Positions 8,337 to 48,857 of a stretch of 64,000 nt of DNA are shown one piece after another. The DNA is from Escherichia coli (GTDB lineage Bacteria > Pseudomonadota > Gammaproteobacteria > Enterobacterales > Enterobacteriaceae). A program made the translations under genes and the position numbers. Within the stretch, counting starts at the first letter, position 1; each line of letters opens with the position of its first letter. The stretch lies in NCBI RefSeq assembly GCF_011045215.1, contig NZ_CP049201.1; one strand, given 5' to 3'. The notes under the pieces were generated by a model. The model saw only the letters and a program-made list of their open reading frames with translations. It had not been told where the DNA came from and made no database searches.

Positions 8337-8610
8337 GATCTGCTCCTTATGAATGATTAAGCGGTATAAATGAAAAAGCCGCAGCTCCCGGAGAAGACGC
8401 GGCCTGATGGATGATGTTTATTGTCTGAGGTACCCTTCACGGGCGGGCCACGCATTAAGCTGTTATGACAGCAACCGCCTGCCCGTATGAGAAAGATCCT
8501 TCAGCCAGGACATACTCTGTGTAACCCGGCATATCTGTTTTCTCCTGATAAATAAAAAGCCTCTGCCACGCGTTGTGACAGAGGCTGAAGCATGAAACTG
8601 ACTTCAGGGA

Positions 8611-9066
8611 TCAGTTAACGTTTTTTCCGGAAACGGTAATTAGCAGTGGATGGTAGTCCTGGGGATCGAAAACCGATAACGGCAGACTGACACGATGGCC
8701 GTTACTTTCTTCAGTTGCTTTAATGATTTCGGTTGTGGCGACATTTTCCACGCACTCCGTTTCCAGAAATGCGTCTGTGGTTCGCGTGGCATCACTGTCA
8801 CCAAAGGCTTCCGTTTCCATTTTTCTGGTCACCAGCCTCTGACCATATTTGTCTTTGAGTTGCAGAGTGATGGTGAGGGGGCCAAATCCTTCTCCGTTTC
8901 CGCCATTATCCAGCCGGAACTGGTAAGCACAAATATTTCCCGGGAGCCATATCGTATCTGTATTGCGTATACTGATGTAACGTTGATCCTGTGCCCGGAG
9001 TGGGGCAGACCACGTTAACCCCAGAATGACGCCGGTAATAATGCAGGTTTTGAACAGGTGAATCAT
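8611..9066 (-). CDS. Hypothetical secreted protein (signal peptide)
   Basis: 151-aa ORF with N-terminal hydrophobic signal MIHLFKTCIITGVILGLTWSAPLRA; strong GGAG-type RBS region upstream. Confidence 0.55.
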   Translation of the reverse strand: MIHLFKTCIITGVILGLTWSAPLRAQDQRYISIRNTDTIWLPGNICAYQFRLDNGGNGEGFGPLTITLQLKDKYGQRLVTRKMETEAFGDSDATRTTDAFLETECVENVATTEIIKATEESNGHRVSLPLSVFDPQDYHPLLITVSGKNVN

Positions 9067-9141
9067 GGTATTTACCTCTCTGAGTCATGACGATGACACT
9101 GACAAATCAGGTGATAAAACGTAAAAGGTGCAGAATACTCG

Positions 9142-11664
9142 TTATGCCGGTAACTCCGGGGGTAATGCTTCTTCCAGCCGGTTAACCATATTGCCGAGAT
9201 GGGATGCATCATATTCCATGACGGGGCGTTGCCTGATGATACTGACCACCAGTGGTTTGATTAACATATTGGTCGCGGCCCGTTGTTGTATACCGGCGGC
9301 GAAAATGATCTCCAGAGCATTCTGATCGATAACACGGGCCAGATTCGCGTTCAGATTTTCTGTTTCATGTCCGGTCAGCAGGAAACTGCCGGCAAGCCAT
9401 GTCACCTGTTCCTGAATCATTGCCAGAATTTTGACGCGATCTTCTTCAACCAGCGCTCCGGCAATTTTTCCTGATACAGCGGAGGCAATCATTCCCCCCA
9501 GAACACCGCCAACCACACGCCCTGTCAGTGCACCAAATGGTCCCAGTGGACTGAACAGTATCCCGCCCGCCACTGACCCGACAGCTCCACCTGCCACACC
9601 GGAAGATGCCACGGCAAGATTCCTGATGAACTGCGTACCGGAGATCCGTCCCCGCAACATTTTGATCATGTCAGGGCCGGTTGTGACAGCTACCAGTGCC
9701 AGAGATGTCACCAGCGTACCCTTCATCACTTTGTTCAGGGCACTGATATTTCCTGCACCGGTCCCCTTCTGAAGAGCCAGTCGGACAGTCGGGCTGGCAG
9801 TCGAAAAATCAATGTGCTTCAGCATACCCTGAACAACACTGAGCCGGTGGAGTTGCTGGGTTGTGACGTAGACAGCCAGTGTGCGGGTGAAGGTTTTTCC
9901 TGCCTGGACAGCAGCTGTCTGCAGAGCAGCATCGCGATCGCCGGTGCTGAGCCAGAAGACCGATGCCGTCAGGGCAAAACTGATCCCTCCGGCCGCCAGA
10001 CTGACAACCGAACCCTCGGCAATATCATAAGTGACCGATTCGATGGTCCCGAACCGGGTGATATTACGGGCCTGAGTATAAGTCAGATGTCCCCGACGAA
10101 TCAGCCGGGACGCTTCTGCGGGATCGATTACACCGGGTACTTTACCTTCGCGGATCTTATTCCTCATGGTTTCAACAGCGCCGGCATACTGATCACGGGG
10201 GACTTCCAGTTGCATGGGGCCATTATTTCCCATGTAACGATACTGTCCGTTTTGTCCGTCGAATGCCGCACCGACGCTACGGGCTGCAGTTGAACAATAT
10301 TTCGTCTGGATTTCTGTTCCGCTGACCAGTCTGTCTGCTCCATTTCTGGCATTATTATCACCGAGGATCCGTGCGTTTTTCAGACGGATTCTGTCGACAA
10401 TATGGTTTCCCCGTTCAGCGGCAAACCCATGTCCCTGCCCTCCGGAAGCAAACATTTTCTCATTTGTACTCCAGGTTTCCGGCAGTTTCATGAGAATCAG
10501 ACCATTCGCCGTTGCATCGGAAATAAAACTGTTGTAGGGGCGTTCATAAATTTCCTGACACAGTGTTTCTGTTTCGCGACAAAGAGAGGAGCAGTACCAT
10601 TCCGGATCCGGCTTATGATTTTCCGGGGCATGATGTACTTCTGTCAGCCCGCAGGAGGCACAGACACGAAGCTCATCCACGTGATGGAATGATACAAAAC
10701 GGCGACCTTCTGAAAAGGGATACCAGTCACCGCCGTCCAGGCAACGATCGAGAAAATCGTCATTCGCTTCCGGTGATAAATTCAGGCGGTTCCGGAAGAG
10801 TGTTTTCAGTTCATCAGGTGTGAATGACAGGTTCTCTTTCAACTGTTCGTTAAACCCTGCCATGTTTCTTTCATACCAGGCATTGTTCAGTAACCAGTTT
10901 CCGTCTGCCAGTTCAAATTCCCTCAGCTCTCCCCGGGAAATCCGTTGAGAAATAAGCGTCAGCCAGATGCGCTCCGTCAGTGAGTCAGGAAGGCTGTAAT
11001 CGTTTTGCAAACTGGTCAGCCACGATTTACTGTTGAGCACCGGTTGTTCTTCCAGTGTCTGGCTGATGGCACAGGTCAGTTTTTTCAGCGCCTGGATTTG
11101 GCTGGCCGCCCATAGCAGCGTCACTAATGCAGCCAGCCAGTACAACAACCCGCCCCACCACATCAGTGACGGTGAAATATCGTACTGTAACGCGATCAAT
11201 GGTGCGCATGCAGAACAAGCCATAAGGAAAAAGGCAGTATAAAAACAGCAGTAATATCCGTTAATTTCCTTGCTGATATCTTCTGGTGTGATCCCGTTCT
11301 GCTGAATGTTTTTGATCTGCAGGGGAACAGCCAGCAGACCACCGGCGAGAGCGGTGGTCAGAATAAATTTCACGGAGTCAAAGGTGTGAGACTCCAGCGC
11401 AATATGTTTACCATCAAGTCCCCACATGAAGCTGATGATCATTCCGGCAATCGTCAGAAATACGCCTGCCAGCCAGCGAATATGGAACAACCGGGTTATG
11501 CGTTCGGTGATATAGCCAGCCAGTAAGGCCGGGCCGAACAGACACAGCAATATGAGCCCTGCCAGCGCAGAAGCCGTGCTGATTAATGCTCTGAACAAAA
11601 GGCGAAGAATGGCAAATCCTGCGATCAGCAGGATCAGCGCGCCGACTATCTGTAACATAGTCAC
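9142..11664 (-). CDS. Large inner-membrane protein (YeeR-like by position), 840 aa
   Basis: N-terminal ~200 aa with multiple hydrophobic helices, central cysteine-containing soluble region, C-terminal glycine-rich hydrophobic segment; immediately downstream of the Ag43 gene. Confidence 0.6.
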   Translation of the reverse strand: MTMLQIVGALILLIAGFAILRLLFRALISTASALAGLILLCLFGPALLAGYITERITRLFHIRWLAGVFLTIAGMIISFMWGLDGKHIALESHTFDSVKFILTTALAGGLLAVPLQIKNIQQNGITPEDISKEINGYYCCFYTAFFLMACSACAPLIALQYDISPSLMWWGGLLYWLAALVTLLWAASQIQALKKLTCAISQTLEEQPVLNSKSWLTSLQNDYSLPDSLTERIWLTLISQRISRGELREFELADGNWLLNNAWYERNMAGFNEQLKENLSFTPDELKTLFRNRLNLSPEANDDFLDRCLDGGDWYPFSEGRRFVSFHHVDELRVCASCGLTEVHHAPENHKPDPEWYCSSLCRETETLCQEIYERPYNSFISDATANGLILMKLPETWSTNEKMFASGGQGHGFAAERGNHIVDRIRLKNARILGDNNARNGADRLVSGTEIQTKYCSTAARSVGAAFDGQNGQYRYMGNNGPMQLEVPRDQYAGAVETMRNKIREGKVPGVIDPAEASRLIRRGHLTYTQARNITRFGTIESVTYDIAEGSVVSLAAGGISFALTASVFWLSTGDRDAALQTAAVQAGKTFTRTLAVYVTTQQLHRLSVVQGMLKHIDFSTASPTVRLALQKGTGAGNISALNKVMKGTLVTSLALVAVTTGPDMIKMLRGRISGTQFIRNLAVASSGVAGGAVGSVAGGILFSPLGPFGALTGRVVGGVLGGMIASAVSGKIAGALVEEDRVKILAMIQEQVTWLAGSFLLTGHETENLNANLARVIDQNALEIIFAAGIQQRAATNMLIKPLVVSIIRQRPVMEYDASHLGNMVNRLEEALPPELPA

Positions 11665-11778
11665 TCCGTGATGAATATCATGTTATTGTTAATGCCAGCG
11701 AATGTGGCGTTGAATATCCGTTGCGCCGGTCCGGGTCCCGATCATGATGACCGGGACCACAGAGAGGCGATGGTTCTG

Positions 11779-14628
11779 TCAGAAGGTCACATTCAGCGTG
11801 GCCTGACCGTTATAGCCTTCGGCGCTGTTGCCGCTGACACTGTGGGCATAACCGGCCTGAACGCCCAGGGTGATATTTTCCCGGACACGGGCTTCCAGTC
11901 CGGCCTGCAGGTCCAGTGACGTGCCATTCCGGGACGGTGAAAACGTCATGTTACTGCCGGCGGCGGCTGTACCCATGCTCATGTCACCCCGGGAGCTGAA
12001 AGTGCGGATAACAGAAGGCTGTACCCACCAGTTCACCGGCAGTTCACTCACACGGTGTTTTGCACTGTCGCGCAGAGTGTCACGGGATGAGGTGCCTTCG
12101 CCAAAAGTCATATCGTTGTGGCTGCCCAGACGGAAGCCGGCACGCACATGTTGTGCACTGCCATGCCCGAACTTCACATAACCGGCGTTATCCTGGCCGT
12201 CATCCAGGGAGAGCCCCTGCCAGGTGTACTGCAGTTGTGGCTCCAGCATCAGGTTGTCAGTGATACTGAAGGGCAGACCGGTTTCCAGTGAGCCCAGCCA
12301 GCCCCAGCCCCGGGCGCGGAAGTCGTTATTGTCCGATGACGCTTTCATGCTGTGGCGGGTTCCCTGGGCCACAATGTCAGCCCACAGGCCGGAGGACGTG
12401 TGTACCAGATTCAGGTATCCGCCCAGGCTGCCGGCATCATCCCGGACCGTGCCGGCACGGGAGCCGTCATCATCCTTAACATCAACGGAAGAATGGCCAG
12501 CAGCACCATACACTCCTGTCGTCAGTGACATACCGGCAACCTCTGTTCTCAGCAGGTCACCCTCCAGACGGACGAGGCCATAGCTGCCGCTGCTTTCCGG
12601 CGTGGCCCCACGGGCAATACCACCGTTGTTATCGTGCCCGAGATGACCGCCCTGAATGCTGAGACGGACGCTGTTATTTTCACCGCTTACACCGGTCTGA
12701 TGGCTGCGGGAACCTGCCAGAATCCGGTCATAGTCCATTGCCTGTGTCAGCATGGAGGCATACAGGGGGACTTCAGCACGATAAGCATTTTCACTGCGCA
12801 GGTACCAGTCTTCATCGCTGTCACGGTTCAGGGTGTAGTTAAAGGCGCCGGCCTGAAGCGGGCGACTCAGGGCAAACGCACCTTCTTCTGTGGTAGCACC
12901 ATTCTGTGCATCCACAACCCGGATACCCTGTCCGGAGGTTGCCACCCCGAGGTTACTGTTTCCGACATTTGTAAACGCAAGCCAGGTTTTGCCGGTTGCC
13001 TGACCACCATTAATCACCAGCTGGTCAGAGGCATTACTGCCATCAAGGCTGACACGCATATTGATGGTGCCGCCCTGGCCGGTGAGGTTCGTGGTGGTTA
13101 GTTTATGGAACGTTACCGGGGAGTTACTTTTTGCAACAGCACGGCTCAGCGCGGCATCCGGTGTCGTCTGATTATCAAAGTGAATCTCTCCTGCGTTAAT
13201 AATATCGCCGGTACTGACCACATCACCATTCAGTACCATACTGGCGCCTTTACTGAGCTGTGTTCTGCCACTCAGACTTCCCCCGGCAGCCAGCGTCAGT
13301 GTTCCACGATGTCCGACAGTGGTGTTGCTGGCCAGTCCTCCGGCATTAACCGTAAAGCTGCCGCCATTTTCCAGCAGCAGGCCGCTGGCCTGACCGGATA
13401 TGCCATCAATACTGAACTTACCGCTGGCATTGGTCCCCTCAACAGTGGCACCACTGTCTGCAATCAGGGCACCACCGGATGTCATGGTGACATCTGTTGC
13501 CTTACCACCGGCAGACACTGCCAGGGTACCGCCGTCATCCACCAGTGTTTTCCAGGCTGAATGGCCCTCCAGTACATCCAGGCGACCGCCGGACTCCAGA
13601 ACAACGCCGTCAGCCTTACCGTTTTCCACTGTGAAATTCCCCAGGCGGTTTGTGCCGGTGACAGTTGCAGCAGTACTGGTAACCAGTGCACCGCCCGTGT
13701 TCTGGGTGACTGCAGTGGCTTCCCCGCCGGCATGTACCCTCAGTTCACCGTTCTGATTTATGGTGGTGTTACCGGCAGCGCCACCGGCCTTAACAACCTG
13801 CCAGCCCCCCTCGTTAATTACCGTGTTCAGCGCCAGTCCGTCCTTGTGCACATACTGGTAACCGCCATTCAGTGTGGTATTCAGGGCCCTTCCGTGTACC
13901 GACTGGTCACCACCTGCGTAAATGAGAGTGTCACGGGCTATCCCGGAAGATAAGATAATCTGCCGTCCATTTTTGTTGATGGTGGTGGATTCTGCTGTTC
14001 CCTGGACCTTCTGACCCGTGTACGAGTTGTCAGAATCCGGGCCGCCTTCTGCGCCGGTGTTGATGATGGTTCCTGTTGCCAGCCCGCCACTTTTAACGCT
14101 CTGGTAACCGTCGCGGTTGATAATTGTACCGGTGGCAACCCCGCCCTCATGAACCCACTGCTCGCCTCTGTTATTCAGCGTGGTGTTCACCGCCAGCCCG
14201 TTCAGGCTCTGTCCCCCGCCGTCACGAATAACCGTATCACTGGCTGTTCCCCCCTCCAGCACGACCTGACGACCATTTGTGGTGACAGTGGTGTTTCCGG
14301 CTATCCCGCCATTCTGTATCCATTGCCCACCGGTGTTTTCTTCACTGTCCGGCCCCAGTTCCAGCCCGGTACTGATGGTCATTCCGTTGGCCGTACCGAG
14401 GACAATCTGGTTGTCATGATTTGTCAGTGTTCCGCCGCTCATGGTTTCTCCCGCCTGTACAACCGTGTCAGCAGCCAGTGCCGGGACTGACGTGACAGCA
14501 GCAAGAGACAGCGCAACCGCCACACCGGTGCGTTTTCCCCGTGAGCGGGCCAGTTCGGAGGCCACCACCAGGGTGCCCGTAATGTGATTCCATACCAGCC
14601 TGTAGCTGGTGTTCAGATGTCGTTTCAT
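11779..14628 (-). CDS. flu: Antigen 43 / Cah-type self-associating autotransporter adhesin (949 aa)
   Basis: Extended signal peptide MKRHLNTSYRLVWNHITGTLVVASELARS..., repetitive passenger, C-terminal beta-barrel ending ...GYNGQATLNVTF; length equals the recalled Cah variant. Confidence 0.9.
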   Translation of the reverse strand: MKRHLNTSYRLVWNHITGTLVVASELARSRGKRTGVAVALSLAAVTSVPALAADTVVQAGETMSGGTLTNHDNQIVLGTANGMTISTGLELGPDSEENTGGQWIQNGGIAGNTTVTTNGRQVVLEGGTASDTVIRDGGGQSLNGLAVNTTLNNRGEQWVHEGGVATGTIINRDGYQSVKSGGLATGTIINTGAEGGPDSDNSYTGQKVQGTAESTTINKNGRQIILSSGIARDTLIYAGGDQSVHGRALNTTLNGGYQYVHKDGLALNTVINEGGWQVVKAGGAAGNTTINQNGELRVHAGGEATAVTQNTGGALVTSTAATVTGTNRLGNFTVENGKADGVVLESGGRLDVLEGHSAWKTLVDDGGTLAVSAGGKATDVTMTSGGALIADSGATVEGTNASGKFSIDGISGQASGLLLENGGSFTVNAGGLASNTTVGHRGTLTLAAGGSLSGRTQLSKGASMVLNGDVVSTGDIINAGEIHFDNQTTPDAALSRAVAKSNSPVTFHKLTTTNLTGQGGTINMRVSLDGSNASDQLVINGGQATGKTWLAFTNVGNSNLGVATSGQGIRVVDAQNGATTEEGAFALSRPLQAGAFNYTLNRDSDEDWYLRSENAYRAEVPLYASMLTQAMDYDRILAGSRSHQTGVSGENNSVRLSIQGGHLGHDNNGGIARGATPESSGSYGLVRLEGDLLRTEVAGMSLTTGVYGAAGHSSVDVKDDDGSRAGTVRDDAGSLGGYLNLVHTSSGLWADIVAQGTRHSMKASSDNNDFRARGWGWLGSLETGLPFSITDNLMLEPQLQYTWQGLSLDDGQDNAGYVKFGHGSAQHVRAGFRLGSHNDMTFGEGTSSRDTLRDSAKHRVSELPVNWWVQPSVIRTFSSRGDMSMGTAAAGSNMTFSPSRNGTSLDLQAGLEARVRENITLGVQAGYAHSVSGNSAEGYNGQATLNVTF

Positions 14629-14845
14629 CAGCTTTTCCTTACAGAGGGTGAATAAAAAAGCCGGTACCCACAAATGTGGATACCGGCAGGTACAAAACAG
14701 CATGGTCAGATAAAGTGGTTTTTCCCGGACATAAATGCTTCCCCTCTCTCATCCGCCAGAGAAGTATCAGTCCGTTGTGTGCAATTCCGTTCTGCATGAT
14801 GAAGAGATTCAGCTGCCTTTTCGCAGGCCATTAACCACTACAAAC

Positions 14846-14881
14846 GATCGATACTAACGATCGATACCTGTTTTATCGATC
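14846..14881 (-). promoter_or_regulatory. Three clustered GATC sites: agn43-type Dam/OxyR phase-variation switch
   Basis: aaacGATCGATactaacGATCGATacctgttttatcGATCGtttta about 220 bp upstream of the flu start; GATC at 14846, 14859, 14878. Confidence 0.75.
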
Positions 14882-14999
14882 GTTTTATTCTATTGATAGC
14901 AGGGCAGTCACGCAAGAGAAACAGGAGGGTATGAGGGGTTTGTATCATGTTTTCAGTTGGTTAACGCAATGTAATCAGGCATTTCCCCTGGCAGAGTGT

Positions 15000-15872
15000 T
15001 CAGAAGAAAATCCAGTTCCATACCGCACGGGCAACAGAGACCACCGTGTCACGAACAGCGCGCAGGGCCGTACGGACAACAGAGGCAACACAGACGCTCT
15101 CCGCTGTGTCAAATATCCGGTCCACCGCACCGGTAAACTGTTCACGGGCCTGAGAGCGGACAGATTCCGTGCGCAGCTCGTCCTGCAGTCGGGTCATCAG
15201 GGGACTGGCGGCATGGTCGGGAAGCGCTGTCATGAGCGCACTGACCAGCGTATCCAGTTCCCAGCCGGTGCGGGCCGATACGGCCACAACCGGATGTGCG
15301 GGCCGGAACAGACGGAATACCGCCTCCGTTTTTTCGCGAATGTTCCGTGCCTGTGCGGGAGAGGGCTGAATGCCGGCCATATCCCATTCATGGCAGGGCT
15401 CCGTTTTGTCGGCCTGCGTCACCACAAACAGCACCTGCTGATGTCCCCGGTGCAGGATGTGTCGCCAGAAATACTCATCCACAGACAAGGCACGGTCATC
15501 GGCTTTAATCAGCCACAGTACCAGGTCCAGTTCAGGCAGAATGTCACGGTACAGGGCTTCATACTCTGCATCCCTGTCCCGACTCTCGCCCACCCCGGGC
15601 AGGTCAGTAATAACCATGCTGTGACCGTGGCCACTCAGACGGAAGCGCCGCACTTCCCGGGTGCCGGCGTGAACATCACTGACCGGTGTGACCTCTCCCT
15701 GAAACAGGGCATTACAGAGTGAGGATTTACCGGCCCCGCTTTTCCCCATAATGCCAATCACGGGTTCGTGACTGGTGAGTTTGCGCAGATGTTCCAGGAT
15801 GTGACGGGAAAGTGAGTAAGGCAGGGAGGAGAGCGGTTTTTCAATTGCCTCAATGGCATCAGACGGATTCAT
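15000..15872 (-). CDS. YeeP/YkfA-family GTPase
   Basis: P-loop GIMGKSGAGKSS and G-domain motifs; 290 aa from MNPSDAIEAIEK...; upstream of the Ag43 gene as in CP4-44. Confidence 0.8.
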   Translation of the reverse strand: MNPSDAIEAIEKPLSSLPYSLSRHILEHLRKLTSHEPVIGIMGKSGAGKSSLCNALFQGEVTPVSDVHAGTREVRRFRLSGHGHSMVITDLPGVGESRDRDAEYEALYRDILPELDLVLWLIKADDRALSVDEYFWRHILHRGHQQVLFVVTQADKTEPCHEWDMAGIQPSPAQARNIREKTEAVFRLFRPAHPVVAVSARTGWELDTLVSALMTALPDHAASPLMTRLQDELRTESVRSQAREQFTGAVDRIFDTAESVCVASVVRTALRAVRDTVVSVARAVWNWIFF

Positions 15873-16087
15873 ACATGTATTCCCGGTGAAAAAAGACAAA
15901 ACCCCGCGCACCGGAAAAGTGGCGGGGGACTCACGGAGATAATATCTGCCTAAAATTATTTGGAATGCAGGTATATGCAGCTAATTTGTATCGGCTCATT
16001 AGTACAGAACTAAACCTCATCTGACAGTCCGCTCTGTGCCAAGAGCGGACTTTGCAAAATGGGGGTTATTTCAATCAAAACGTAACG

Positions 16088-17032: not shown

Positions 17033-17494
17033 AATTATTGCTACTGTTTTTGTTTATCATTATTTTCGTGAAACTTCAACAATTTTATCCAAAAGCTAAG
17101 GGCAAAGACTTATATAATTATACTTGTCATCGTTAGCGATTATATAGAGTAGTGGCGCTGACCTGCTCCCTGGTGATTCACACAGAATGCTGTTAGTAAT
17201 GTCCGTTCCTCGCTCAAAGCAGACCATTCGCTCAGTTAACGCATCAGTGTCGTGCTAAAAGTAGACGTGGTTAACAACAATGTGAGTTAATCAACGGAGA
17301 GCAGGTCAACTCTAACCTGTATCAAAAAAACAAATGTGTCACAAAGATGCCGCATGCCTTAATTTGAGTATAATTGAGACGGAAGTAGACGGTTTATGGC
17401 TAAATATTGTTGATATATAGCTATTTGAAGAGTTGTAGCGCAAGTGTATAGCCCAAACTAATAACGCTACGCCCCTTACCTTTGACGCGTCTTA

Positions 17495-22088: not shown

Positions 22089-22100
22089 AAGGGAAAGCAC

Positions 22101-23821: not shown

Positions 23822-23839
23822 GGGTTTAAGGAGCGCCTT

Positions 23840-37490: not shown

Positions 37491-40400
37491 CTACCTGTTT
37501 AGCTGTTTCAATATTGTTTCAAAAGACTTTTCATTGCCTTCAAAAGGTATGACTTGCTTCACCGCTTTTCCAGGGCCTTTACCCTGCGAGTAATCCCATA
37601 TATTGATGTGTGTGCCTTTTTCAGGATCATAATCAACACGCCAACCAACTTTTCCGTCGCTGGATTGCCGCCCTATGACTTTCCCATTACCAGCGCTGAC
37701 TTCCAAACGTCCGATAACTGGCTTAGAGTCCGCTCCTAAATTACCTACAAGATCCAATGCCTTGTTTCGAGCAGTTTCCCAGTTTTTCTCTGGCTTGAGG
37801 ATTTGTTCAATTTTAGGCTGGGAATTCCCTTTAACCTTACTAATTCCCCCAAATGCTGACGCCGCAGCGCTCGCGACTATTCCCGCCTGAACTTCATCCA
37901 AACCGTATTCTTCTTGGAGTGCTTCCGAGACTTTGTTGGTCGCGACAACCCCTTCAGCCTGCATTTGCTGCGCAAAAGTCGCCGTCAGATCGTAGACCAT
38001 TTTGATCGGGATATCTTCACCCAGAGCACGATCTATTGCCTGCTTCACCGCCAGACTGTCAGTCAGTACATCACCGTATTTCTGCTGGCAGGTTGCCGGG
38101 CTGGCTGCACAGTCACTGATCAGTTGCTTTTGCTGTGCCGTACTCAACTCTTCGTACTTTTTGATAATACCGCCGCAGTCACCGCCTTTCGCCTGACAGG
38201 ACTTCATTTCAGCGGACCAAGCATCTATCTGCTTACTGCTCAGATAGTTATTCTCAACAGTTGTCTTACCTGACTGTGCGCCGGCTACCGCTGAAGCCCC
38301 CGAGTCTCCCACCAGACCACCGGCCAGGCCGGCAGCAACCGTTGCCAGTGTCGAGACCGTCTGCTTCTCTGTCTCGCTCAGTTCACTCACCGGCTTACCG
38401 TACATCTGTGTGGCTATCATTCCCACCACCTCGCCGGTGGCTGCACCTGCAGCACCGGCAAGGGCATTCTTACCCTGTGCCAGAGACAGGGCGGCATTCA
38501 CTACTGCATGAGCTGCCACACGCCCCGCACCGTCCGGGGTGGTCTGTTTGATAATTTCAGCAATATACGGCGCTGCACCACCTGCCAGGGCTGCACTCAG
38601 ATTACCGCCGGCCAGTCCCTGTACCGCTGCCGTTGCGGCCTGTATCGCCTGCTGGTATTTGCCTCCCGTTCCAAAACCGGAGGCTGCCATACCGTTATTG
38701 TAGGCCCGCTGTGCCACATCCTGTTCCGTGTACGGTTTTCCTGCTGCCTCAAGCTCTGCGCGGGCCTGATTCAGTGCTGCCGGGTCCCGCTTCGCTTTCT
38801 CACCGGCTATCTGTCCTTCCGTTCTGGCAATATCTGCCACCTGGTTACCAATCTCACCAATGAGTTGCGCCTGCTGCAACCGCTGCTGCTCTTTTTCCCT
38901 GTCAAAGATGGGGGACAGCGTCTGGTTTGCATGCGCAACGTCACGGTTCAGGTCTGCCACATCCTGTTTCTGGCTCTGTGTATCCCGGATAGTGATATTC
39001 CCGGCAGACACAGCCGACTGCGTGGTACTGTCCGCATGGCCTTCATGATTTGCACCGACCAGCAGATTGTTTGCCATGTTCCCCAGGAAATTTCCGGCAA
39101 CACTGCCACCGGTACTGAGCCCTGCACTCTGATGTTCCGTTTTAAAGTCAGCCCGGTTTTCAGTGTCACTGAAGCCCAGTGTGCCGGTATCCAGCCTGTT
39201 TTTATCTGCCGTTGCCGTGGACGCAATCACCGCACCGTTCAGTTGCGTATGCTGTCCGGTGGTGACATCAAACCCGCCCCTGCCGGCAAAAATCCCCGTC
39301 TGCTCCTGTACACTGTCGTAGTTACTGTGCATTTTATCCCGGCTGAGGTTCACACTCGCCGAACCGCTCATGGACCCGAAAGTGAAGCTGCCTCCGGCGC
39401 TGGCATTCTGCTGCTTACTGTCATAACGGTCACTGTCCTGCTCACTGGTCAGTGTCAGATGACGACCGGCATCCACTTTCACCGTTTCACCGCCAGCCTG
39501 CGCGCCGGTAAGCGTGGTGTCCCGCCCGCTGATAATGGTCAGCCGGTTTCCCGCATCCACCGTGGTTTCTGTATGGGTGGTACCGTTGCCTTTTTCACTG
39601 CCCTTACCCTGGTTTGCGCTGGCTGACAGACTGAAACCAGGCCCTCCGGGCCCCACACCGATACCGACACCCACGCTGCCACCACTGGATGTGTTCTTTC
39701 CTTCCAGCTTTGACGTGTTTTCTGCTGATACCAGATTCACGTCACGGTTTGCCTGCAGCAGAACGTTGTTCCCGGCCTTTATCTGACCGCCCTGTATCGT
39801 CAGGTCACCATCCACGCCCTTCACGCCGGAGCCGGTGGCCTGAATACTGAGGTTATTACCTGCGGTCAGTGTACTGCCCTTCGCCACCGTCTGCTCTGAC
39901 TGCTGTTCTGATTTCGAAGACTGGCTGCCGTAAGAGAGGCTGATACCCACGGTATTGTTATTCTCTTTCTGGTTGCCCTGTGCTTCTGCCAGTCGTCCGG
40001 CCTGCACGGCCTGAGCCCCCGAGAGCGCGGCCTTCACCCCCTGCAGGGCTTCAAGCCGGCTGTTTCCGGCAGATTTCGCCGCCTGTACGGTCTCCACCGT
40101 CGTGTTCAGGGCGCTGCCCGCTGTGCCGGACAGGGCAAGCGTCAGACCGGAGGTTTTCTGCTCCACCGTATGTGTCTGCACATGCCGGTCAGTGGCGGCG
40201 GTAATGCTGACCTCCTTACCACTGAGTGCCATGTCCCTGCCGGCAATCAGGTCAGAGCCGTTGACGGTCAACCGGTTACCTGCCTGAAGGGAAACATCAC
40301 CGTGAACACTCCCCACCGTGCTGCCTTTCTGCGTGGTGTCTGTTGCGGTGTCCGTGACCTTCAGACTCTGGCTGCCCACGCTGAATCCCACACCTCCGGA

Positions 40401-43400
40401 GCTCATCAGTCCGGATTTTTTCTCCTGTTTCAGGTGTGTTTCACGGTTGCTTTCTGTCAGCGTTCCGATACTCAGGTTATTTCCGGCAGCCAGGGAGACA
40501 CGGTTATCCCCGGCCACACTGCTGCCCGTGACGTTCAGATTATGTCCGGCACCGATACTGACCGTATCCCCGTTCAGTTCACTGCCCGTCATGGTCCGGC
40601 GGTCAGTGACATCATGCGTGGTAGTGGTGGTTTTCGATAACATCCCGCTGTTGCCGGTCACTTTATGGTATTCATCCAGCGAGCGGGTATTCTGTGCACC
40701 GGTCAGCGTCACGTCATGACCCGCCATCAGGGCCAGGCCTTTCTGAGCTGACAGCGATGCCGCCTGTGACGTCATATCCCGTCCGGCGGTCAGCGTGACA
40801 TCACCGTTACCGGCAAGTGTGCTGCCCGTATTCTGTGTGACGCCCTGCGACAGACGATTATTTTTATCCCAGGTAATATTGTCCTGCGCGGATGTGGTCA
40901 CCGTGGAAAGCGTCATATCCCTGCCGGCACTGAGTTGTGTCAGGCTGTCCTTACCCTGATTCACCACCGTTGCCGCCGTCAGATTCATATCCCGTCCGGC
41001 CTGCAGCACCAGTCTTCCCTGGTCGTTCTGCACATACACGCCGGCCACACTGTCGATACTGGTACGTTCAAAATGGTTCTGCCCGGCGTCGCGCTGTGCC
41101 GTACGGGTGGTGGTGGTCAGACTGATATCCCGTCCGGCCATCGCCAGCAGGCTGTCCGTGGCCTGCAGCAGCCCGCCGGTACTGTTAATATCCGTCCGGG
41201 CCGTCAGGCTGACATTTGCTCCCTGAATGGTGCCGGCCTGGTTGTGAATGTTTTCTGCACTGAGCTGCACGGCCTGCTTCCCGGCCAGTTTACCGCTGTT
41301 AAACAGGTCACCATCCAGCTTCATCACCATGTCCCTGCCGGCAATCAGCGCACCGGCACTGTTCACATCACCGGGTTTTACACGGGCATACACCTGAGGT
41401 ACCTGAACCGTCTGCGTGCTGCCGTCCGGCAGTGTCACCGTGGTGTTAACCAGCCAGACAATATCACCGGTCAGTAACGCCATCTGCTCAGCAGTCAGCG
41501 CCACACCTGGTGTCAGGTTGTATTGCTTACCAAATGCAATACCCGCATCCATTAACGCCTTAAACTGCTCTTCATCATTACTGTATCCGTCCAGGTACCG
41601 TTGCCCGGTCAGAGCGACAACCTGCTCACGAATCAGACGCTGTTCGTAAAAACCATCCCCCAGGCGTTTGAGCATGTTATCCCCGTTCTGAGAAAACGCC
41701 TTCTGCATGTAATCACTGCCCAGCCACGTCTTCTGGTTCGTAAAACGCGGGTCCGTTTCAACCAGATATGGCACATTCACTGCCGGATTTGTTTTAAACA
41801 GGCTGCTGTCCGGCAGACGGGTATCCGGCCCGGCAACATGGATACTGCCCTGAGGTGCGCTGACTTCAAACTGCTGCCCCGGCAACAGAATGACCGGTTC
41901 ACCGGCTGACACCACCGGGCGAAGCGGTATCCGGTCAGTAACGGCTACTGTCGCATCCACATTTCCGGTCAGTCCTGTCTGTACATCCGTTCCCTGTGGC
42001 TTCAGGGGAGAAAGCGTGACCTGGCTGCCCTGAACCTGTCCGTGGCTGGTGAGCTCTCCCGGCTTCAGCGTGATGGTCTGAATGACGGGGGGCGGCTCGT
42101 AAGGGGAAATTCTTTCCCCCTGCCTGTCATTTTTATTTTTTCTTTTTATCCGGTAATAATATGTGGATGTCCCTTTATCAGTAACATGGCGCTCTCCGCT
42201 GACACTGACGTTTTCCACATCACCGGCCTGCATATCCAGCAGACCACCTGCAACCACCTGGCTCTTGTCATTAAGCAGTTTGTCTGCCACAACCGTCATG
42301 CCGGCACCGGACAGTATTTTCCCCGGGTCGGAGTCTTTTACCCGGGTTTCCTCCACGGTACGGGTGTATTCATATTTTGTGAACCGGTCGTTGTTATGTC
42401 CGGTATCATCCGGCGTGTTCAGGTTCAGCAGTCCATCAGAGGAGTTGTTATCAATGAACACCCCCTCATCTTTTGCATTCCAGCGGACATCTGACCCGCG
42501 ATGCTGATACTCAGTCACCTTTTCCGTGGAGACCACCACGCGCTCCGTGGTGAAATGGTCATTGACGTTATTGATTTGCCCGGCACTCAGTGTCAGGGAA
42601 CCGGCGGCTTCAATCGTGGCACTGTGATTATTCAGTACACCGGCTTTCCCCGTGGCGGCGCCATTCGCATCCAGCATGCCACCGATATGCATATCACCTG
42701 CACTGTAAATCAGGCTGTGCGTCCGGTTATTCAGGGTCTGTACCCCCAGGTCCACACGCTCACGTCCGGCCAGCGTCGCCGCCACGCCATTTTCATCCAG
42801 ATTATTAAATGTGGCAGCGCTGACACCAACAGCATCGCCGTAGATTCGCCCGGTACCGGAATTCGTCAGGGTGTTCGCCTGAAGATGCGTATATTTCCCG
42901 TCAATCAGCCCACGGTTCAGCAGTGTGTCCGTCACGTTAAGCCAGGTCTGCCCGGCACTGATTTCACCTTTCTCTGTGTTTTCAAGGCGGATGCTGTTCA
43001 GGTCAAGCCGGCTGCCTGCCAGCAGGCTGCCGGTATTAGAGACATCGCCATTAACGGAAAGCGTAAGGTTTCCGTTTGCAATGGTCTGACCACTGTTACT
43101 GAACGCTGTGTTACTTTTCAGCGTTATATCGCCCGGCGAAAGCAGTTTCCCGTCACCACCAAGCTGACCGACATCCACAGAGACTGACTGCCCGGCCTTA
43201 ACCACGCCGTCACGGTTCGAAAACGCCAGCTGACGGCCACTGACAGACAATGTCGCGCCGGAAGAGAGCACGCCATCATTATTACTGAGCGTCCTGTCTG
43301 CCATAACCGTAAGCGCCCTGTCTGCCAGAATACTGCCCTCCTGGTTATCAAGGTCCTGCGTCGTGATGTGTATTGTCTGCGCTTCCAGCCCCTGGCCGGT

Positions 43401-46400
43401 ATTCTGCGTGTGGCGATTGATAAACTGCAGGGCGTTCAGCGTAATGGCAGAACCACTGCGAATCAGACCAGAGACGTTGTCCACAACGCCCCGTACACTG
43501 TCGAACAGAATGTCGCCCACAGACTGTATCTGTCCGTGGCTGTTCTGCAGGCCTCCCGTATGCAGACGGAGTTCACCTTCACTGACCAGCCGGCCACCCT
43601 CACGGTTATCCAGCGAGGTGGTGCTCAGGTCAGCTGTCGTTTTCGCCCCCACGGTCCCGCCCCGGTTATCCATTGCTCCGGTACTGACAGTCAGTTCCTG
43701 CAGGCTGTTCAGCGTACCCCCTCTGTTATCCAGCGTCCGGCCTGCGCTATTAATGCTGATGCCTTTCCCCTGAATAAGACCGGACTGATTGTTCAGCGCC
43801 AGACTGTTCCGGCCGGGCAGACCGGTCGCCACAATCTGACCATTCGCCACCACCTGACCGGATGTATTGTTAACCACGCCTGCAGTCAGGGACAGCGCAT
43901 CTCCCGACAAAAGCACACCGGCAGTGCTGTCCAGTGTGCCGGCATTCAGCGTCATCGGGCCCTGACTGATAACCCCGCCCCGGTCACCACTGTTACGGTT
44001 GCTCAGTGTGTCAGCACGGAGATTCAGTGTGGCACCGCTCTGTATCAGACCACCTGCATCATTGCTGATATCCGTCGAGGAAAGGGTCAGTGACTGCTGT
44101 GCCACCAGTCTGCCGCCCTGATTATCAGAGCGGGTGACATCCAGCCTGCTGTTACCGTTGCTGACCACCGTCCCCTGCTGATTTTCCAGCACATTCAGGT
44201 GCGCATTCAGGTCCCCGCCGGCGGCAAGCGTCCCTTCCTGATTACTGACATCGCCACCACTCAGCAACATATCCGTCCCGGCCTTCAGTGCGCCTTTCTG
44301 GTTCATCAGCGTACCTGACGATATCTGTAATGACGCCTGACTCCCCAGCACGCCCTGACGGTTATCGAGCGTTCCGGCGTTCAGGGTCATATCCTTCTGA
44401 CCCGCCATAAATCCCTGCTGGTTATTCAGCATACCGGCCCGTACTGTCAGGGTACCGGCGCTGCTGATACCACCCCGTGTTTTCGTGTTCCGGTTACTGA
44501 GAACCCCGTCCTGTACATCCAGCGTCATGTCACTGCCGGACTGAATCAGACCATCATCAGAGACCAGTTCGCTGCCTGACACAGACAGCGTTTTCTGTGA
44601 AAGCAGTCTGCCGGACGTATTATCCAGCGCACCATCCAGCGTCACGGACAGCCCGTCAGACACCACCGTACCCTGGTGGTTATTCAGACTCCCTGCCGAA
44701 ATATCCAGCCTGCCGGCGGACTCCATTCGTCCCTCAGTATTGCTGACAGCCTGCTGTGTTTTTATCCTGCCCGTTCCGGCAGCAGCTGAAATCAGTCCGT
44801 TGTCGTTATTCAGTGCCTGTGTATTAATCAGGATGTCACGGCTGGCAATCAGACTTCCCTGCTGGTTATCCACGGCGCCGGTTGTCCTCACCTGCAGACT
44901 ACCTGACTGCGCCGCCTGCACTTTCCCCCTGCGATTATCAAGGCTCAGTGCATCCAGGCGCACCGCGCCATTTGCCGCAAGCAGCCCTTCCCGGTTATCC
45001 ACACCTCCCGGCAGGTTCAGTGAAAAATCCCCTGTTCCCGTCTGAATCAGTTTACCCCTGTGGTTTGACAGGCTCTGTGCTGATATCTGCAGTGTGTCGG
45101 CATTTATCGTGCCGTCATTATTGCTGAACTGCCCGGCAGTCCGGGCGGAAAGCGTACCGGCACTCAGTTGCGCATTTTGCGTGAACAGATTTCCGCTGCC
45201 TGCATCCAGCTCAGTATGTTGTCCCTGTATCCGGCTGTTGCTTAAATCCAGCCCCTGCCCCTTCAGTTGCATGTCCCCACCGGACAGAACCTGTCCGTGT
45301 GCCGCCAGTTCGCCGGTGGTACTGACAGTCAGGTTGCCCGCTGCCGCCAGACGTCCGTCATCTTTCACCCCGGCGGCCAGCAGACTCCGCTCACCGCCGG
45401 TCAGACGCGCTGTCTGAATCCGGGTGTTGCGACGTGATGCCACAGAGCCTGTATGGGTGAATACACCATCACTCTGTATCTGCGTATCCTGCCCCGCATA
45501 AACAGAACCACTGTTATGCAGCTCCCGGGTTGTCACCAGATGCACATCCGTTTTCGCACTGATACTGCCACTGTTTTCAATTCGTCCGTCAGCCGTCAGG
45601 GTAACCGCCCCTGCCTGCGCACCAATATGACCGGCGTTACGAACACCCACCCCCGTTTCCGTACCGACAAGGCGAATTTTTCCGGCATACATTCCACCAA
45701 GGCTGGACACATCCAGCGCCACCTGTGGCTGCGAAGAGGCATCAGCGGCTTTTTTCTCAGTCTGCCCGTGTGCAATATCCACATTGTTACGTCCGGTGGT
45801 CACTTTCAGGTCCTGCGCCCAGATACCCGCATTAATCTTCACAGACCGGGCAATGATATCGGTATAATCCGTGCGCGAGGCATCCATCCCTTTGCCCGTA
45901 ATCTGAATCTCACCACGTTCAACACTGAATCCGGTCAGACTGCCGTTTTTCATCTGAGGCTGCCCCGTGGTCAGCGTGGCCCGGTTCGCATTAATAAAAC
46001 CGCACCCGTCGCAACTGATGCCGGCCGGGTTCGCAATCACCACCTGCGCCTTTTTCCCGGCAACCTCAACAAAACCGTTCAACTGGCTGGGATTGCGACT
46101 GTTCACTTCATTAAGAATGATTCGGGCCTCTCCCTTCGCCAGCCACGGGTTACCGGCAACCATGCCGCCCAGTTGGGTCTGCACATTTTTATGCGAGTTA
46201 TTCAGAATGACACCCTGATGACTGACATCAAACTGACTGTAAGTATTGTGCGATACCCCACCTGCAGAAGGTGTCTGGATATTGACCTGAGGAATGCCGC
46301 TGGCTGTCTGCGTAATCGTGGGCTGCTGATGCCCCGGTGCGCCATGGTCTGCGACAATGCCTGCAGCACTGACAGAATGCACCATCCCCGAGGCCAGCCA

Positions 46401-46565
46401 CAGGGAGAATGCAAGCGATGTGACACGGCAGATACGTTGCCTGCGTGGATATCCTGTACGGGAGGAGGGTGATGCACCGGCGCGACCGGAACGGGCAATA
46501 TCTGCCACCACCATCAGCATTCCCCGGGCTTTGTTAAAAATAATGCGGTAACAATTTTTGTTCAT
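37491..46565 (-). CDS. cdiA: CdiA contact-dependent growth inhibition exoprotein (two-partner secretion TpsA), 3024 aa; CT toxin 37494..38246 after VENN at 38247..38258
   Basis: Extended signal peptide MNKNCYRIIFNKARGMLMVVADIA, TPS domain, long hemagglutinin-type repeats, VENN motif (TTVENNYLSSKQ) 251 codons before the stop. Confidence 0.9.
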   Translation of the reverse strand: MNKNCYRIIFNKARGMLMVVADIARSGRAGASPSSRTGYPRRQRICRVTSLAFSLWLASGMVHSVSAAGIVADHGAPGHQQPTITQTASGIPQVNIQTPSAGGVSHNTYSQFDVSHQGVILNNSHKNVQTQLGGMVAGNPWLAKGEARIILNEVNSRNPSQLNGFVEVAGKKAQVVIANPAGISCDGCGFINANRATLTTGQPQMKNGSLTGFSVERGEIQITGKGMDASRTDYTDIIARSVKINAGIWAQDLKVTTGRNNVDIAHGQTEKKAADASSQPQVALDVSSLGGMYAGKIRLVGTETGVGVRNAGHIGAQAGAVTLTADGRIENSGSISAKTDVHLVTTRELHNSGSVYAGQDTQIQSDGVFTHTGSVASRRNTRIQTARLTGGERSLLAAGVKDDGRLAAAGNLTVSTTGELAAHGQVLSGGDMQLKGQGLDLSNSRIQGQHTELDAGSGNLFTQNAQLSAGTLSARTAGQFSNNDGTINADTLQISAQSLSNHRGKLIQTGTGDFSLNLPGGVDNREGLLAANGAVRLDALSLDNRRGKVQAAQSGSLQVRTTGAVDNQQGSLIASRDILINTQALNNDNGLISAAAGTGRIKTQQAVSNTEGRMESAGRLDISAGSLNNHQGTVVSDGLSVTLDGALDNTSGRLLSQKTLSVSGSELVSDDGLIQSGSDMTLDVQDGVLSNRNTKTRGGISSAGTLTVRAGMLNNQQGFMAGQKDMTLNAGTLDNRQGVLGSQASLQISSGTLMNQKGALKAGTDMLLSGGDVSNQEGTLAAGGDLNAHLNVLENQQGTVVSNGNSRLDVTRSDNQGGRLVAQQSLTLSSTDISNDAGGLIQSGATLNLRADTLSNRNSGDRGGVISQGPMTLNAGTLDSTAGVLLSGDALSLTAGVVNNTSGQVVANGQIVATGLPGRNSLALNNQSGLIQGKGISINSAGRTLDNRGGTLNSLQELTVSTGAMDNRGGTVGAKTTADLSTTSLDNREGGRLVSEGELRLHTGGLQNSHGQIQSVGDILFDSVRGVVDNVSGLIRSGSAITLNALQFINRHTQNTGQGLEAQTIHITTQDLDNQEGSILADRALTVMADRTLSNNDGVLSSGATLSVSGRQLAFSNRDGVVKAGQSVSVDVGQLGGDGKLLSPGDITLKSNTAFSNSGQTIANGNLTLSVNGDVSNTGSLLAGSRLDLNSIRLENTEKGEISAGQTWLNVTDTLLNRGLIDGKYTHLQANTLTNSGTGRIYGDAVGVSAATFNNLDENGVAATLAGRERVDLGVQTLNNRTHSLIYSAGDMHIGGMLDANGAATGKAGVLNNHSATIEAAGSLTLSAGQINNVNDHFTTERVVVSTEKVTEYQHRGSDVRWNAKDEGVFIDNNSSDGLLNLNTPDDTGHNNDRFTKYEYTRTVEETRVKDSDPGKILSGAGMTVVADKLLNDKSQVVAGGLLDMQAGDVENVSVSGERHVTDKGTSTYYYRIKRKNKNDRQGERISPYEPPPVIQTITLKPGELTSHGQVQGSQVTLSPLKPQGTDVQTGLTGNVDATVAVTDRIPLRPVVSAGEPVILLPGQQFEVSAPQGSIHVAGPDTRLPDSSLFKTNPAVNVPYLVETDPRFTNQKTWLGSDYMQKAFSQNGDNMLKRLGDGFYEQRLIREQVVALTGQRYLDGYSNDEEQFKALMDAGIAFGKQYNLTPGVALTAEQMALLTGDIVWLVNTTVTLPDGSTQTVQVPQVYARVKPGDVNSAGALIAGRDMVMKLDGDLFNSGKLAGKQAVQLSAENIHNQAGTIQGANVSLTARTDINSTGGLLQATDSLLAMAGRDISLTTTTRTAQRDAGQNHFERTSIDSVAGVYVQNDQGRLVLQAGRDMNLTAATVVNQGKDSLTQLSAGRDMTLSTVTTSAQDNITWDKNNRLSQGVTQNTGSTLAGNGDVTLTAGRDMTSQAASLSAQKGLALMAGHDVTLTGAQNTRSLDEYHKVTGNSGMLSKTTTTTHDVTDRRTMTGSELNGDTVSIGAGHNLNVTGSSVAGDNRVSLAAGNNLSIGTLTESNRETHLKQEKKSGLMSSGGVGFSVGSQSLKVTDTATDTTQKGSTVGSVHGDVSLQAGNRLTVNGSDLIAGRDMALSGKEVSITAATDRHVQTHTVEQKTSGLTLALSGTAGSALNTTVETVQAAKSAGNSRLEALQGVKAALSGAQAVQAGRLAEAQGNQKENNNTVGISLSYGSQSSKSEQQSEQTVAKGSTLTAGNNLSIQATGSGVKGVDGDLTIQGGQIKAGNNVLLQANRDVNLVSAENTSKLEGKNTSSGGSVGVGIGVGPGGPGFSLSASANQGKGSEKGNGTTHTETTVDAGNRLTIISGRDTTLTGAQAGGETVKVDAGRHLTLTSEQDSDRYDSKQQNASAGGSFTFGSMSGSASVNLSRDKMHSNYDSVQEQTGIFAGRGGFDVTTGQHTQLNGAVIASTATADKNRLDTGTLGFSDTENRADFKTEHQSAGLSTGGSVAGNFLGNMANNLLVGANHEGHADSTTQSAVSAGNITIRDTQSQKQDVADLNRDVAHANQTLSPIFDREKEQQRLQQAQLIGEIGNQVADIARTEGQIAGEKAKRDPAALNQARAELEAAGKPYTEQDVAQRAYNNGMAASGFGTGGKYQQAIQAATAAVQGLAGGNLSAALAGGAAPYIAEIIKQTTPDGAGRVAAHAVVNAALSLAQGKNALAGAAGAATGEVVGMIATQMYGKPVSELSETEKQTVSTLATVAAGLAGGLVGDSGASAVAGAQSGKTTVENNYLSSKQIDAWSAEMKSCQAKGGDCGGIIKKYEELSTAQQKQLISDCAASPATCQQKYGDVLTDSLAVKQAIDRALGEDIPIKMVYDLTATFAQQMQAEGVVATNKVSEALQEEYGLDEVQAGIVASAAASAFGGISKVKGNSQPKIEQILKPEKNWETARNKALDLVGNLGADSKPVIGRLEVSAGNGKVIGRQSSDGKVGWRVDYDPEKGTHINIWDYSQGKGPGKAVKQVIPFEGNEKSFETILKQLNR

Positions 46566-47117: not shown

Positions 47118-48857
47118 TCAGAAATCCCGGAACAGATTAAAACCGGCTGTCACATCACTCGTCATAAAACCCGCCGGCTTTGAAAACGGACGACCGATGA
47201 AAACGTCATAATCCGTACTGAACAGTTGCCCCCTCAGCCCCACAACACCACCAGCCAGATGACGTCCCACCAGGTATTCACTGCCGGCTCCCCCCACCTC
47301 GCCGTAATCCATTCCCAGATATAACTCCTGCTCCGGCAGTGGCGTACGCCAGGCCAGGTCGTTGCGGATATACCAGCCGTTACTGGCATTCAGCGTTCGC
47401 TCCCCGTCAAAACCACGAACCGTCCAGCGGTTACCGATGGCAAACTGTTCCTGTGGGGTCAGCGGGGTATTGCTCAGCTGGCGCTGATACCGGAAGGAAT
47501 AACTGAAGGGCTGCCCTGCAAGGGTAAAGGGCAGATTAAAGGATGCATTCAACTGCAGGATCTTACTGAGCGCCGTTGCCTCACCGAACGTTTCTTCCGG
47601 CGCCGGCTGTGCACCAAACCAGCGGGTTCCCCGTTGCCAGCTGACACCAGCATCCAGTGTGGCCTGAGAAATATAATGACGGTGCTGCAGCCCAAGTCGC
47701 CAGGCCGCTGTCTGCCGGCGCTGCACCTGGATTTCCGTATCATTAATGTAGTTACGCGACCTGCGGGCCTGAACATCGTAGGTCAGCACCGTTTTCTGCG
47801 TCCCGTTACGGTGCAGTACCCGGCTCAGCTGCATACCCAGATTCTGACTCTCGCCACTGTACTGGTAATCCTCAACCGCACCAGCTACCGTCTGATGGTA
47901 ATCGTAATCACTGGCGGTGACGGAAAACTGCCAGTAGCCGAAAGGCACAGAGTAATGGGCCGTGTAGTTTTTACTGCCCTTACCCCCGTAATGTGGAAAA
48001 TTACGGGTGGCAGAAACATACAGCAGGTCACTCAGGGAAAAAGGATTATCCAGAGAAAATGTTATACCACCGAGATAACGCCCTGTGCTGCGGGTACCTG
48101 AATCATCAAGCGAAAACCCCAGTCGCCAGTATTTGTCCTGTTTGCGGGTAATAAGAATGTCACTTTCCCCTGGCTGCTCACCGGGTACAATTTCCATATC
48201 AGCCTGCACACCCGGCAGTCGTTGCATATTCTCCAGCCCCTGCTCAATGTCCCGTAAATCCAGCAGAGAACCTTCGTGTGCCGGGAATGAGGAATACAAC
48301 TGAATATAGTCATCACTGTCCGGTGTCAGACGCACATGTCGCACAACACCGGGAATAACAACCAGCCGGAGGATACCGCTTTTTAAATCCTGCGAAGGTG
48401 CCAGAACACGGGTGGTGACATAACCATGATCGACCAGACGGTTCTGCAATGTACTCATCAGCAGATTAATTCCTTTCGCCCCCAGGCAATGCCCGACCGC
48501 CCCGTTGGCGATTTTTTGTAAAGGCAGCCAGTGTGGTAACGCATCAGCCCCCTCCAGTTCCGTCTGTTTAATCTGAAAACAGGGCGTTTCAACAGGAAAA
48601 TTAATCTTACGGGCAAAAGAGCCAGGTGCAGAAAGGCGAACATCAGGGGCTGAAGGCGTCAGTTGTTGCTCAAGGGCTTCCTGACGCTGCTGCTGAATGA
48701 TAAATGCATTATCTCCGCTACGCCGGACATCCGCGGCCTGAAGAGATAAAGGCGATAATAAAACAGACATCAGTGTCAGTGACAGCAAGGACGGACAGCG
48801 CCGGAATACGCTTTGTTCCTCAGCCCTCTCGTTCCTGCAACATAATTTTCCAGTCAA
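47118..48857 (-). CDS. cdiB: CdiB, TpsB/FhaC-family outer-membrane transporter
   Basis: 579-aa ORF with signal peptide ([12 protein letters not shown]), POTRA-like region and C-terminal beta-barrel ending in F; true start may be an internal ATG ~87 nt downstream. Confidence 0.85.

Follow-up and report, generated by a model that had tools for sequence, protein, structure and literature searches.

The locus lies on the minus strand of the window, the whole 64-kb stretch of Escherichia coli DNA analyzed here, and centers on a 371-bp intergenic region at 14629..14999. The open reading frame map places this region between the stop of a GTPase gene and the start codon of an Ag43 gene. Its two ends, the end of the GTPase CDS and the start of the Ag43/Cah CDS, are exact in 5 other annotated E. 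coli genomes. The preliminary description had taken 14629-14999 as a switch interval upstream of an Ag43/Cah gene. The interval coincides exactly with the distance from GTPase stop to Ag43 start, with gene and switch both on the minus strand, and the gene identity is borne out by a full-length match to the Ag43/Cah equivalog NF033177 (1973 bits versus a cutoff of 1200, covering 1-948 of 948). The agn43/cah gene (11779..14628, minus strand), which codes for the self-aggregation adhesin Ag43, is intact, encodes 949 aa, and contains the Pfam ESPR, AIDA, AC_1 and Autotransporter (beta-domain) matches. A YeeP-like GTPase gene (15000..15911, minus strand; Pfam MMR_HSR1) is the conserved neighbor upstream of the switch and is annotated elsewhere as 'GTPase family protein'. 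Downstream of agn43 are the probable second and third genes of an operon: a yeeR-like intact ORF of 840 aa (9142..11664, minus strand), whose homologue in RIVM_C029670 is annotated as 'YeeR family protein', and irmA (8611..9066, minus strand; Pfam PF18673 IrmA, 132 bits), which encodes the interleukin-receptor mimic protein. No terminator-like site was found on the minus strand from agn43 to irmA. A strong one is located just past irmA (8558..8586, minus strand), where a terminator-like hairpin with a 12-bp stem containing 7 GC pairs is followed by TTTTATTTAT and marks the probable operon end.

The core flank of the window, ghrA-ycdZ, has 99.7% identity to E. coli genomes, and on this basis the window was assigned to the species. 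Strain RIVM_C029670 has a closely similar island with the customary set of CbtA/YeeU, RadC, antirestriction, DUF932, IrmA, YeeR, Ag43 and GTPase genes. On the plus strand of the window there is also a type I restriction-modification locus (18310-27651) with hsdM (18310-20748), hsdS and hsdR. Comparison with the annotated RIVM_C029670 island places a darT/darG toxin-antitoxin pair between hsdS and hsdR, with an M48 peptidase gene after them. The uropathogenic agn43-yeeR-irmA operons of CFT073 (PAI-serX and PAI-pheV) and EC958 have the gene order, the intact IrmA and the lack of an internal terminator seen in the window, and are likewise inserted at the tRNA-Ser(GGA) adjoining ycdZ (PMC4807369). 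In the uropathogenic strains CFT073, EC958 and 83972 the three genes are co-transcribed and OxyR-repressed, with RT-PCR evidence for a single agn43-yeeR-irmA transcript from EC958 only (PMC4807369). The operon in the window is predicted from its gene order, whereas co-transcription and OxyR repression are known from the uropathogenic strains (PMC4807369). Since the same intact gene order is present, YeeR and the secreted cytokine-receptor mimic IrmA are probably under the control of the switch as well, and the transcription unit that it drives is probably agn43-yeeR-irmA (14628..8611).

The regulatory features were positioned within the 371-bp region on the minus strand. The probable -10 hexamer, TAGAAT, was assigned by homology at 14887..14892. 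The probable -35 hexamer, TTGCGT (14910..14915), was assigned by position and homology; it matches the consensus at three of six bases and is separated from the -10 by a 17-nt spacer. A generic sigma-70 consensus scan of 14500-15100 reported no promoter, and it was because of this blank scan and the 3/6 match of the -35 that the promoter was placed by homology. The promoter-proximal GATC-I (14878..14881) begins 5 nt downstream of the TAGAAT box within AACGATCGATA (14884..14874). GATC-II (14859..14862) is 19 nt past GATC-I, which is the K-12 spacing, and lies within TATCGATCGTT (14866..14856). GATC-III (14846..14849) is 13 nt past GATC-II, also within TATCGATCGTT (14853..14843). A single 11-mer therefore houses all three sites, as AACGATCGATA on the plus strand at 14843 and 14856 and as its reverse complement TATCGATCGTT at 14874. 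The predicted OxyR operator (14843..14893), drawn by homology to the K-12 block, covers the -10, the transcript start and the three GATCs. It overlaps the homology-assigned promoter as well as the transcript start, and 14883 is the first position matched by the Rfam IsrC model. The 5' leader transcript, an IS102/IsrC-type RNA (14647..14883; Rfam RF00124), contains an intrinsic terminator (14651..14687) and is followed by the Shine-Dalgarno AAGGA and the ATG start codon of agn43 (14626..14640), which were recognized from sequence and alignment.

The preliminary description had reported three GATCs within 36 bp, each in a CGATCGAT context, about 220 bp upstream of the autotransporter start. The three sites are present at 14846-14849, 14859-14862 and 14878-14881, and the context of each can be read on one or other strand. 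The distance from the agn43 ATG (14628) is 217 nt to the nearest GATC and about 250 nt to the farthest. The estimate of the distance was thus correct, but the sites are not merely upstream of the gene: they begin 5 nt past the -10 and overlap the transcript start. The transcription start of EC958 is 228 bp before the ATG (PMC4807369). Given equal leader length, this start would correspond to about 14856 in the window, past GATC-II but short of GATC-III and downstream of the expected start. It would then differ from the K-12-type start at about 14881, and its mapping onto this leader is uncertain.

Pairwise alignment of the region with the K-12 flu upstream region gave about 76% identity overall. 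The two switches have in common a TAGAAT -10 with GATC-I 5 nt past it, a GATC spacing of 19 + 13 nt, palindromic ATCGATCG contexts at the GATCs, a leader terminator, a ribosome-binding site and the same kinds of neighbor, with a YeeP-type GTPase gene on the upstream side and an Ag43-family gene on the downstream side. The K-12 GATCs are at locus positions 2318/2337/2350, compared with 14881/14862/14849 on the minus strand of the window, which is the same 19/13 spacing. The preliminary description had named this alignment as a check on the switch, and the -10, the GATC spacing, the terminator and the ribosome-binding site all coincide. There are also differences, and the two belong to different allele classes. 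The K-12 -35 is TTGTCC rather than TTGCGT, its GATC-I is CGATCA rather than CGATCG, and the 7-nt spacer after GATC-I contains a CTAT half-site in K-12 that the window allele does not have. The leader in the window is about 40 nt longer than the K-12 leader, with indels of about 40 nt in the leader interior. The product of the window gene is Cah-sized at 949 aa, whereas the K-12 protein has 1039 aa. In the K-12 MG1655 annotation, the ncRNA isrC is located directly before flu.

Seven alleles were aligned: the window, NGF1 agn43, Nissle 1917, LHM10-1, MB06231, O157-type cah and K-12. The GATCs and their spacing are invariant in all seven, as are their immediate flanks apart from the CGATCA of K-12 GATC-I where the window has CGATCG. 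The Shine-Dalgarno and ATG are also invariant. Six of the alleles have TAGAAT as the -10 and one has TAGAAC. Variation is seen in the stretch separating GATC-II from GATC-III and over much of the leader. This combination of fixed GATC elements and varying spacers is, on the alignment, the signature of purifying selection. Of 5426 complete E. coli genomes, 4017 (~74%) contain the intergenic region, in up to seven copies. Most copies are 95-99% identical to the window region, and these are present in 2913 genomes, making this the commonest allele class in E. coli. The element is a textbook agn43 switch, intact and ordinary, that belongs to the commonest allele class, and the finding is already known.

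The leader of ~250 nt was analyzed by Rfam search, terminator scan and RNA folding. RF00124 (IS102/IsrC) matched with 74.4 bits versus a gathering score of 46 (E = 1.1e-11) over model positions 1-206 of 206. The resemblance to the IS102/IsrC RNA is a full-length one that includes the 5' GATC hairpin and the 3' terminator, and the difference is about 35 extra nucleotides in the interior of the window sequence relative to the family model. The intrinsic terminator consists of a G+C-rich hairpin (14687..14660) with the 12-bp stem GCCGGTATCCAC/GTGGGTACCGGC, and is followed by the run TTTTTTATT, AAGGA and ATG. The terminator stem is invariant in all seven alleles, and the sole variable terminator base is in the loop. 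Given this terminator, part of the ON-state transcription would end as an IsrC-type RNA ahead of the gene. A 2014 study reportedly described control at the agn43 leader RNA (cited in PMC12266141). The details of the operator footprint and of leader termination follow secondary citations. A 52-aa ORF that begins with ATG (14797..14639, minus strand) crosses the terminator hairpin and stops at a TAA overlapping the Shine-Dalgarno. It is probably not a gene: the frame is intact in four of the seven alleles and is frame-shifted or start-less in MB06231, O157 cah and K-12.

The established model for agn43 starts with OxyR bound to the unmethylated operator, where it represses transcription, and OxyR no longer binds once Dam has methylated the three GATCs (PMC3764049, PMC2909390, PMC4872104, PMC13337833). 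Competition between Dam and OxyR after replication results in heritable ON/OFF states that switch at ~10^-3 per generation; a dam mutation locks cells OFF and an oxyR mutation locks them ON (PMC3764049, PMC2909390, PMC4872104, PMC13337833). OxyR recognition was evaluated in the window with the tetramer consensus ATAGnTnnnAnCTAT-N7-ATAGnTnnnAnCTAT, which spans 37 bp and was scored over 20 positions. The best match, 13/20, is at 14857-14893, and this score occurs at only 20 of the ~128,000 window position-strands (top 0.02%). In the register in which K-12 scores 14/20, the window allele has 10/20 by hand count. These consensus scores are suggestive but short of decisive. Both dam and oxyR are outside the 64-kb window. 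They are core E. coli genes, and host Dam and OxyR are assumed from the E. coli identity of the DNA.

The Dam/OxyR mechanism is ascribed to the window element because of its homology to the K-12 region. The preliminary description had proposed a Dam/OxyR arrangement, and the proposal agrees with the homology to K-12, the same -10, GATC spacing, terminator and ribosome-binding site, and the RF00124 match. In the predicted sequence of events, a weak sigma-70 promoter (TTGCGT, 17-nt spacer, TAGAAT) would start transcription from GATC-I or just before it, and the three GATCs would lie inside one OxyR operator. While the GATCs are unmethylated, OxyR would stay bound, block transcription and shield the sites from Dam, which would constitute the heritable OFF state. 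Should Dam reach the sites before OxyR, while they are hemimethylated after replication, OxyR would be excluded and the promoter would be ON. Transcripts would then reach the intrinsic terminator 20 nt ahead of the ribosome-binding site. Those that terminate would be released as a roughly 235-nt IsrC-type RNA, and those that read through would encode Ag43 and probably also YeeR and IrmA. The preliminary description is without two of these layers, namely the leader terminator with its IsrC RNA and the probably co-transcribed yeeR and irmA. ON/OFF switching in this strain, which it had considered likely, would follow by homology.

Several other readings of the GATC sites were weighed. The spacing of the sites was dropped as an argument for the switch since three GATCs in 36 bp are not significant alone. 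In 300 first-order Markov simulations of 64 kb, such clusters arose at a mean of 1.0 per window, with at least one in 61% of the simulations. The window contains a second cluster of four GATCs in 28 bp (33335-33362), located in the N-terminal coding part of an ORF (33276-34280, plus strand) that is carbamoyltransferase-like by eye, and this is taken to be a chance cluster of the kind the simulations predict. An expectation of about one cluster per 64 kb, and a second one that sits in coding sequence, are what would be seen if the three GATCs at 14846-14881 had no regulatory meaning. Yet these sites are homologous to a defined K-12 element with identical spacing, and they are invariant across alleles and across genera. 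They are also isolated: the 5.8 kb from 11744 to 17565 has no GATC other than the three switch sites, and the neighboring GATCs are at 11740 and 17566. It is the 11-mer repeated three times, the homology to K-12 flu and the isolation from other GATCs that lift this cluster above chance, and an accidental origin is extremely unlikely. The switch might instead be kept in sequence but inactive, with a degenerate first OxyR half-site that binds OxyR poorly, so that the operon would be constitutive or governed mainly by the leader terminator. The drop from 14/20 in K-12 to 10/20 in this allele by hand count in the K-12 register is in line with such a loss, as is the strong, invariant terminator between promoter and gene. 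The allele class is, however, the commonest in E. coli, with 2913 genomes at 95-99% identity, and the persistence of three invariant GATCs amid varying neighbors argues for continued selection. Nissle 1917, closely related to CFT073 and 83972, has the allele class of the window in the alignment. Moreover, the operon is derepressed in oxyR mutants of CFT073, EC958 and 83972 (PMC4807369). An inactive switch is considered very unlikely.

The leader raises the question of which product the GATCs regulate. If the stand-alone small RNA (IsrC/IS102) were the main product, the GATCs would regulate the RNA and not the adhesin. The Rfam match above the gathering score, the annotation of isrC as an ncRNA in K-12 and the strong terminator ahead of the ribosome-binding site fit this arrangement, and an engineering screen recorded a phenotype when IsrC was repressed (PMC10783499). 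The regulatory mechanism of IsrC is called undisclosed in the same work (PMC10783499), and the leader interior is very different from that of K-12 (~40-nt indels), unlike a conserved trans-acting RNA. The promoter is common to the RNA and the mRNA, so the RNA complements the switch model and does not replace it. Regulation of the RNA to the exclusion of the adhesin is accordingly rated highly improbable. The preferred reading is that the 371 bp comprise promoter, operator and leader of a minus-strand agn43-type operon under a Dam/OxyR switch, and on the features described above this is very probably correct. The anatomy, homology, conservation and gene integrity of the element are direct observations of this analysis. 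Binding by OxyR, competition with Dam, bimodal expression and co-transcription are attributed to it from published work on homologues.

The element was compared with other Dam-dependent switches. The OxyR/Dam-controlled gtr and opvAB loci of Salmonella and the Lrp/Dam-controlled pap locus generate heritable ON/OFF states through Dam acting against a DNA-binding protein (PMC2909390, PMC4856963). gtr and opvAB contain four GATCs, paired two by two within alternative OxyR half-sites that lie upstream of the promoter (PMC2909390). The window differs in that all three GATCs belong to a single operator at the transcript start, and in the agn43-type arrangement OxyR has a repressor role only. The pap switch depends on Lrp, two GATC boxes 102 bp apart and a PapI-like co-regulator (PMC2909390). 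The window is unlike pap in these respects, and no further GATC occurs for 2.7-3.1 kb on either side of the three-GATC block, which does not correspond to the pap architecture. By its sequence layout, the window element is of the agn43 type and has neither the pap nor the gtr/opvAB design.

The distribution of the switch core beyond E. coli was examined by scanning 100,044 species genomes (one per species) with the pattern CGATC-N13-TCGATCG-N6-TCGATCG, which returned 18 loci. Homologous loci among the 18 came from three Citrobacter species only, and no Escherichia representative was returned. The cores are located at 5100-5160 in the C. braakii ATCC 51113 locus, 935-985 in C. amalonaticus and 7170-7215 in C. 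werkmanii. The other loci, in cyanobacteria, actinomycetes and others, are presumed to be chance matches, of which about two are expected. The GATC spacing is 19 + 13 nt in all three Citrobacter, and a TAGAAT -10 is present in C. braakii and C. amalonaticus only. The sequence common to E. coli and Citrobacter is limited to roughly 55 bp comprising the -10 box and the three GATCs. No Ag43 gene accompanies the core in Citrobacter. In C. braakii the switch comes after the same YeeP-type GTPase gene as in the window. Its cargo is two uncharacterized genes for secreted proteins of 154 and 157 aa, neither with a Pfam match, and the island module of DUF932, antirestriction, RadC and CbtA genes comes next. 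In E. coli strain TC24 a homologue of the 154-aa gene lacks a GATC switch upstream. The ~55-bp switch core appears to behave as a portable cassette, with small secreted-protein genes in place of Ag43 in the C. braakii and C. amalonaticus islands. The agn43 gene itself is reportedly 99.6% confined to Escherichia (PMC10058404). The phage collection yielded no match to the switch core. In the plasmid collection 13 records matched, many of which are megabase-sized and presumably mis-filed chromosomes, and they provided no new context.

The isolation of the switch extends to the genes around it. The Ag43 coding sequence has 0 GATC versus 5.9 ± 2.0 expected from 1000 synonymous-codon shuffles, none of which (0/1000) reached zero. 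Synonymous-codon shuffling gave the same picture for K-12 flu (locus 2351-5719; 0 GATC versus 8.6 expected) and for the Ag43 allele of RIVM_C029670 (locus 21781-24627; 0 versus 6.1 expected). Both genes upstream of the switch, the GTPase gene and a hypothetical gene, are GATC-free, and the GATC count of yeeR is normal (19 versus 15.7 expected). In Ag43 TCGA is absent and CCGG is enriched (z about +5), and a strong CCGG excess is also found in cdiA.

The cdiA gene belongs to a cdiBA-type two-partner secretion locus at 37491-48857 on the minus strand (CdiB, 48857..47118; CdiA, 46565..37491). CdiA is a 3024-aa protein with a TPS domain, haemagglutinin repeats and PT-VENN at aa 2726-2776. The conserved 8.3-kb body of cdiA (38238-46565) has 0 GATC versus 28 expected (z = -7.3), and the GATC-free stretch measures 9.4 kb (38118-47559). 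The six GATCs of cdiA are all past VENN in the C-terminal toxin module. Window positions 4716-8337, the DUF932 segment of the island, are GATC-free too. The AT-rich intergenic region upstream of cdiB contains three GATCs in 53 bp, at 49023, 49040 and 49072. One of them is held in a perfect 18-bp palindrome, ACATATCGATCGATATGT. Two GATCs flank a TATAAT box in the block TTCAGATC-N13-GATC, and this block is invariant in four ~80%-identical versions from CFT073, an O157 strain, ETEC1716 and the window. With its GATC-free gene body and these conserved upstream GATCs, the cdiBA operon has a layout like that of agn43. The region upstream of cdiB may be a second Dam-sensitive promoter.

A GATC desert as a feature specific to the switch was weakened by three comparisons. 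GATC is likewise absent from the body of cdiA, far from the switch, and from the DUF932 segment; Ag43 and cdiA have a common compositional signature (CCGG enriched, with TCGA absent in Ag43); and in C. werkmanii two GATCs lie near the switch, at distances of 55 and 93 bp. It is unlikely that isolation from other GATCs is what allows the switch to work at all. Because of the CCGG excess in Ag43 and cdiA and the absence of TCGA from Ag43, a compositional or historical origin of the GATC depletion is at least as likely as a functional one.

The element adds nothing to the biology of phase variation, as it is a standard one present in ~74% of complete E. coli genomes. The gain is for the annotator: by homology, expression of the island-borne Ag43/Cah is very probably bimodal and not uniform, yeeR and irmA probably switch along with agn43, and the GATCs at 14846-14881 are the sites of interest for methylation. 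A broader survey might pay off in two areas, the GATC deserts and the switch cassette with its different cargo genes in Citrobacter. If selection keeps the deserts, for example so that processive Dam or SeqA is kept from a promoter whose methylation has to be settled locally, they would point to a wider class of Dam-gated surface-protein operons.
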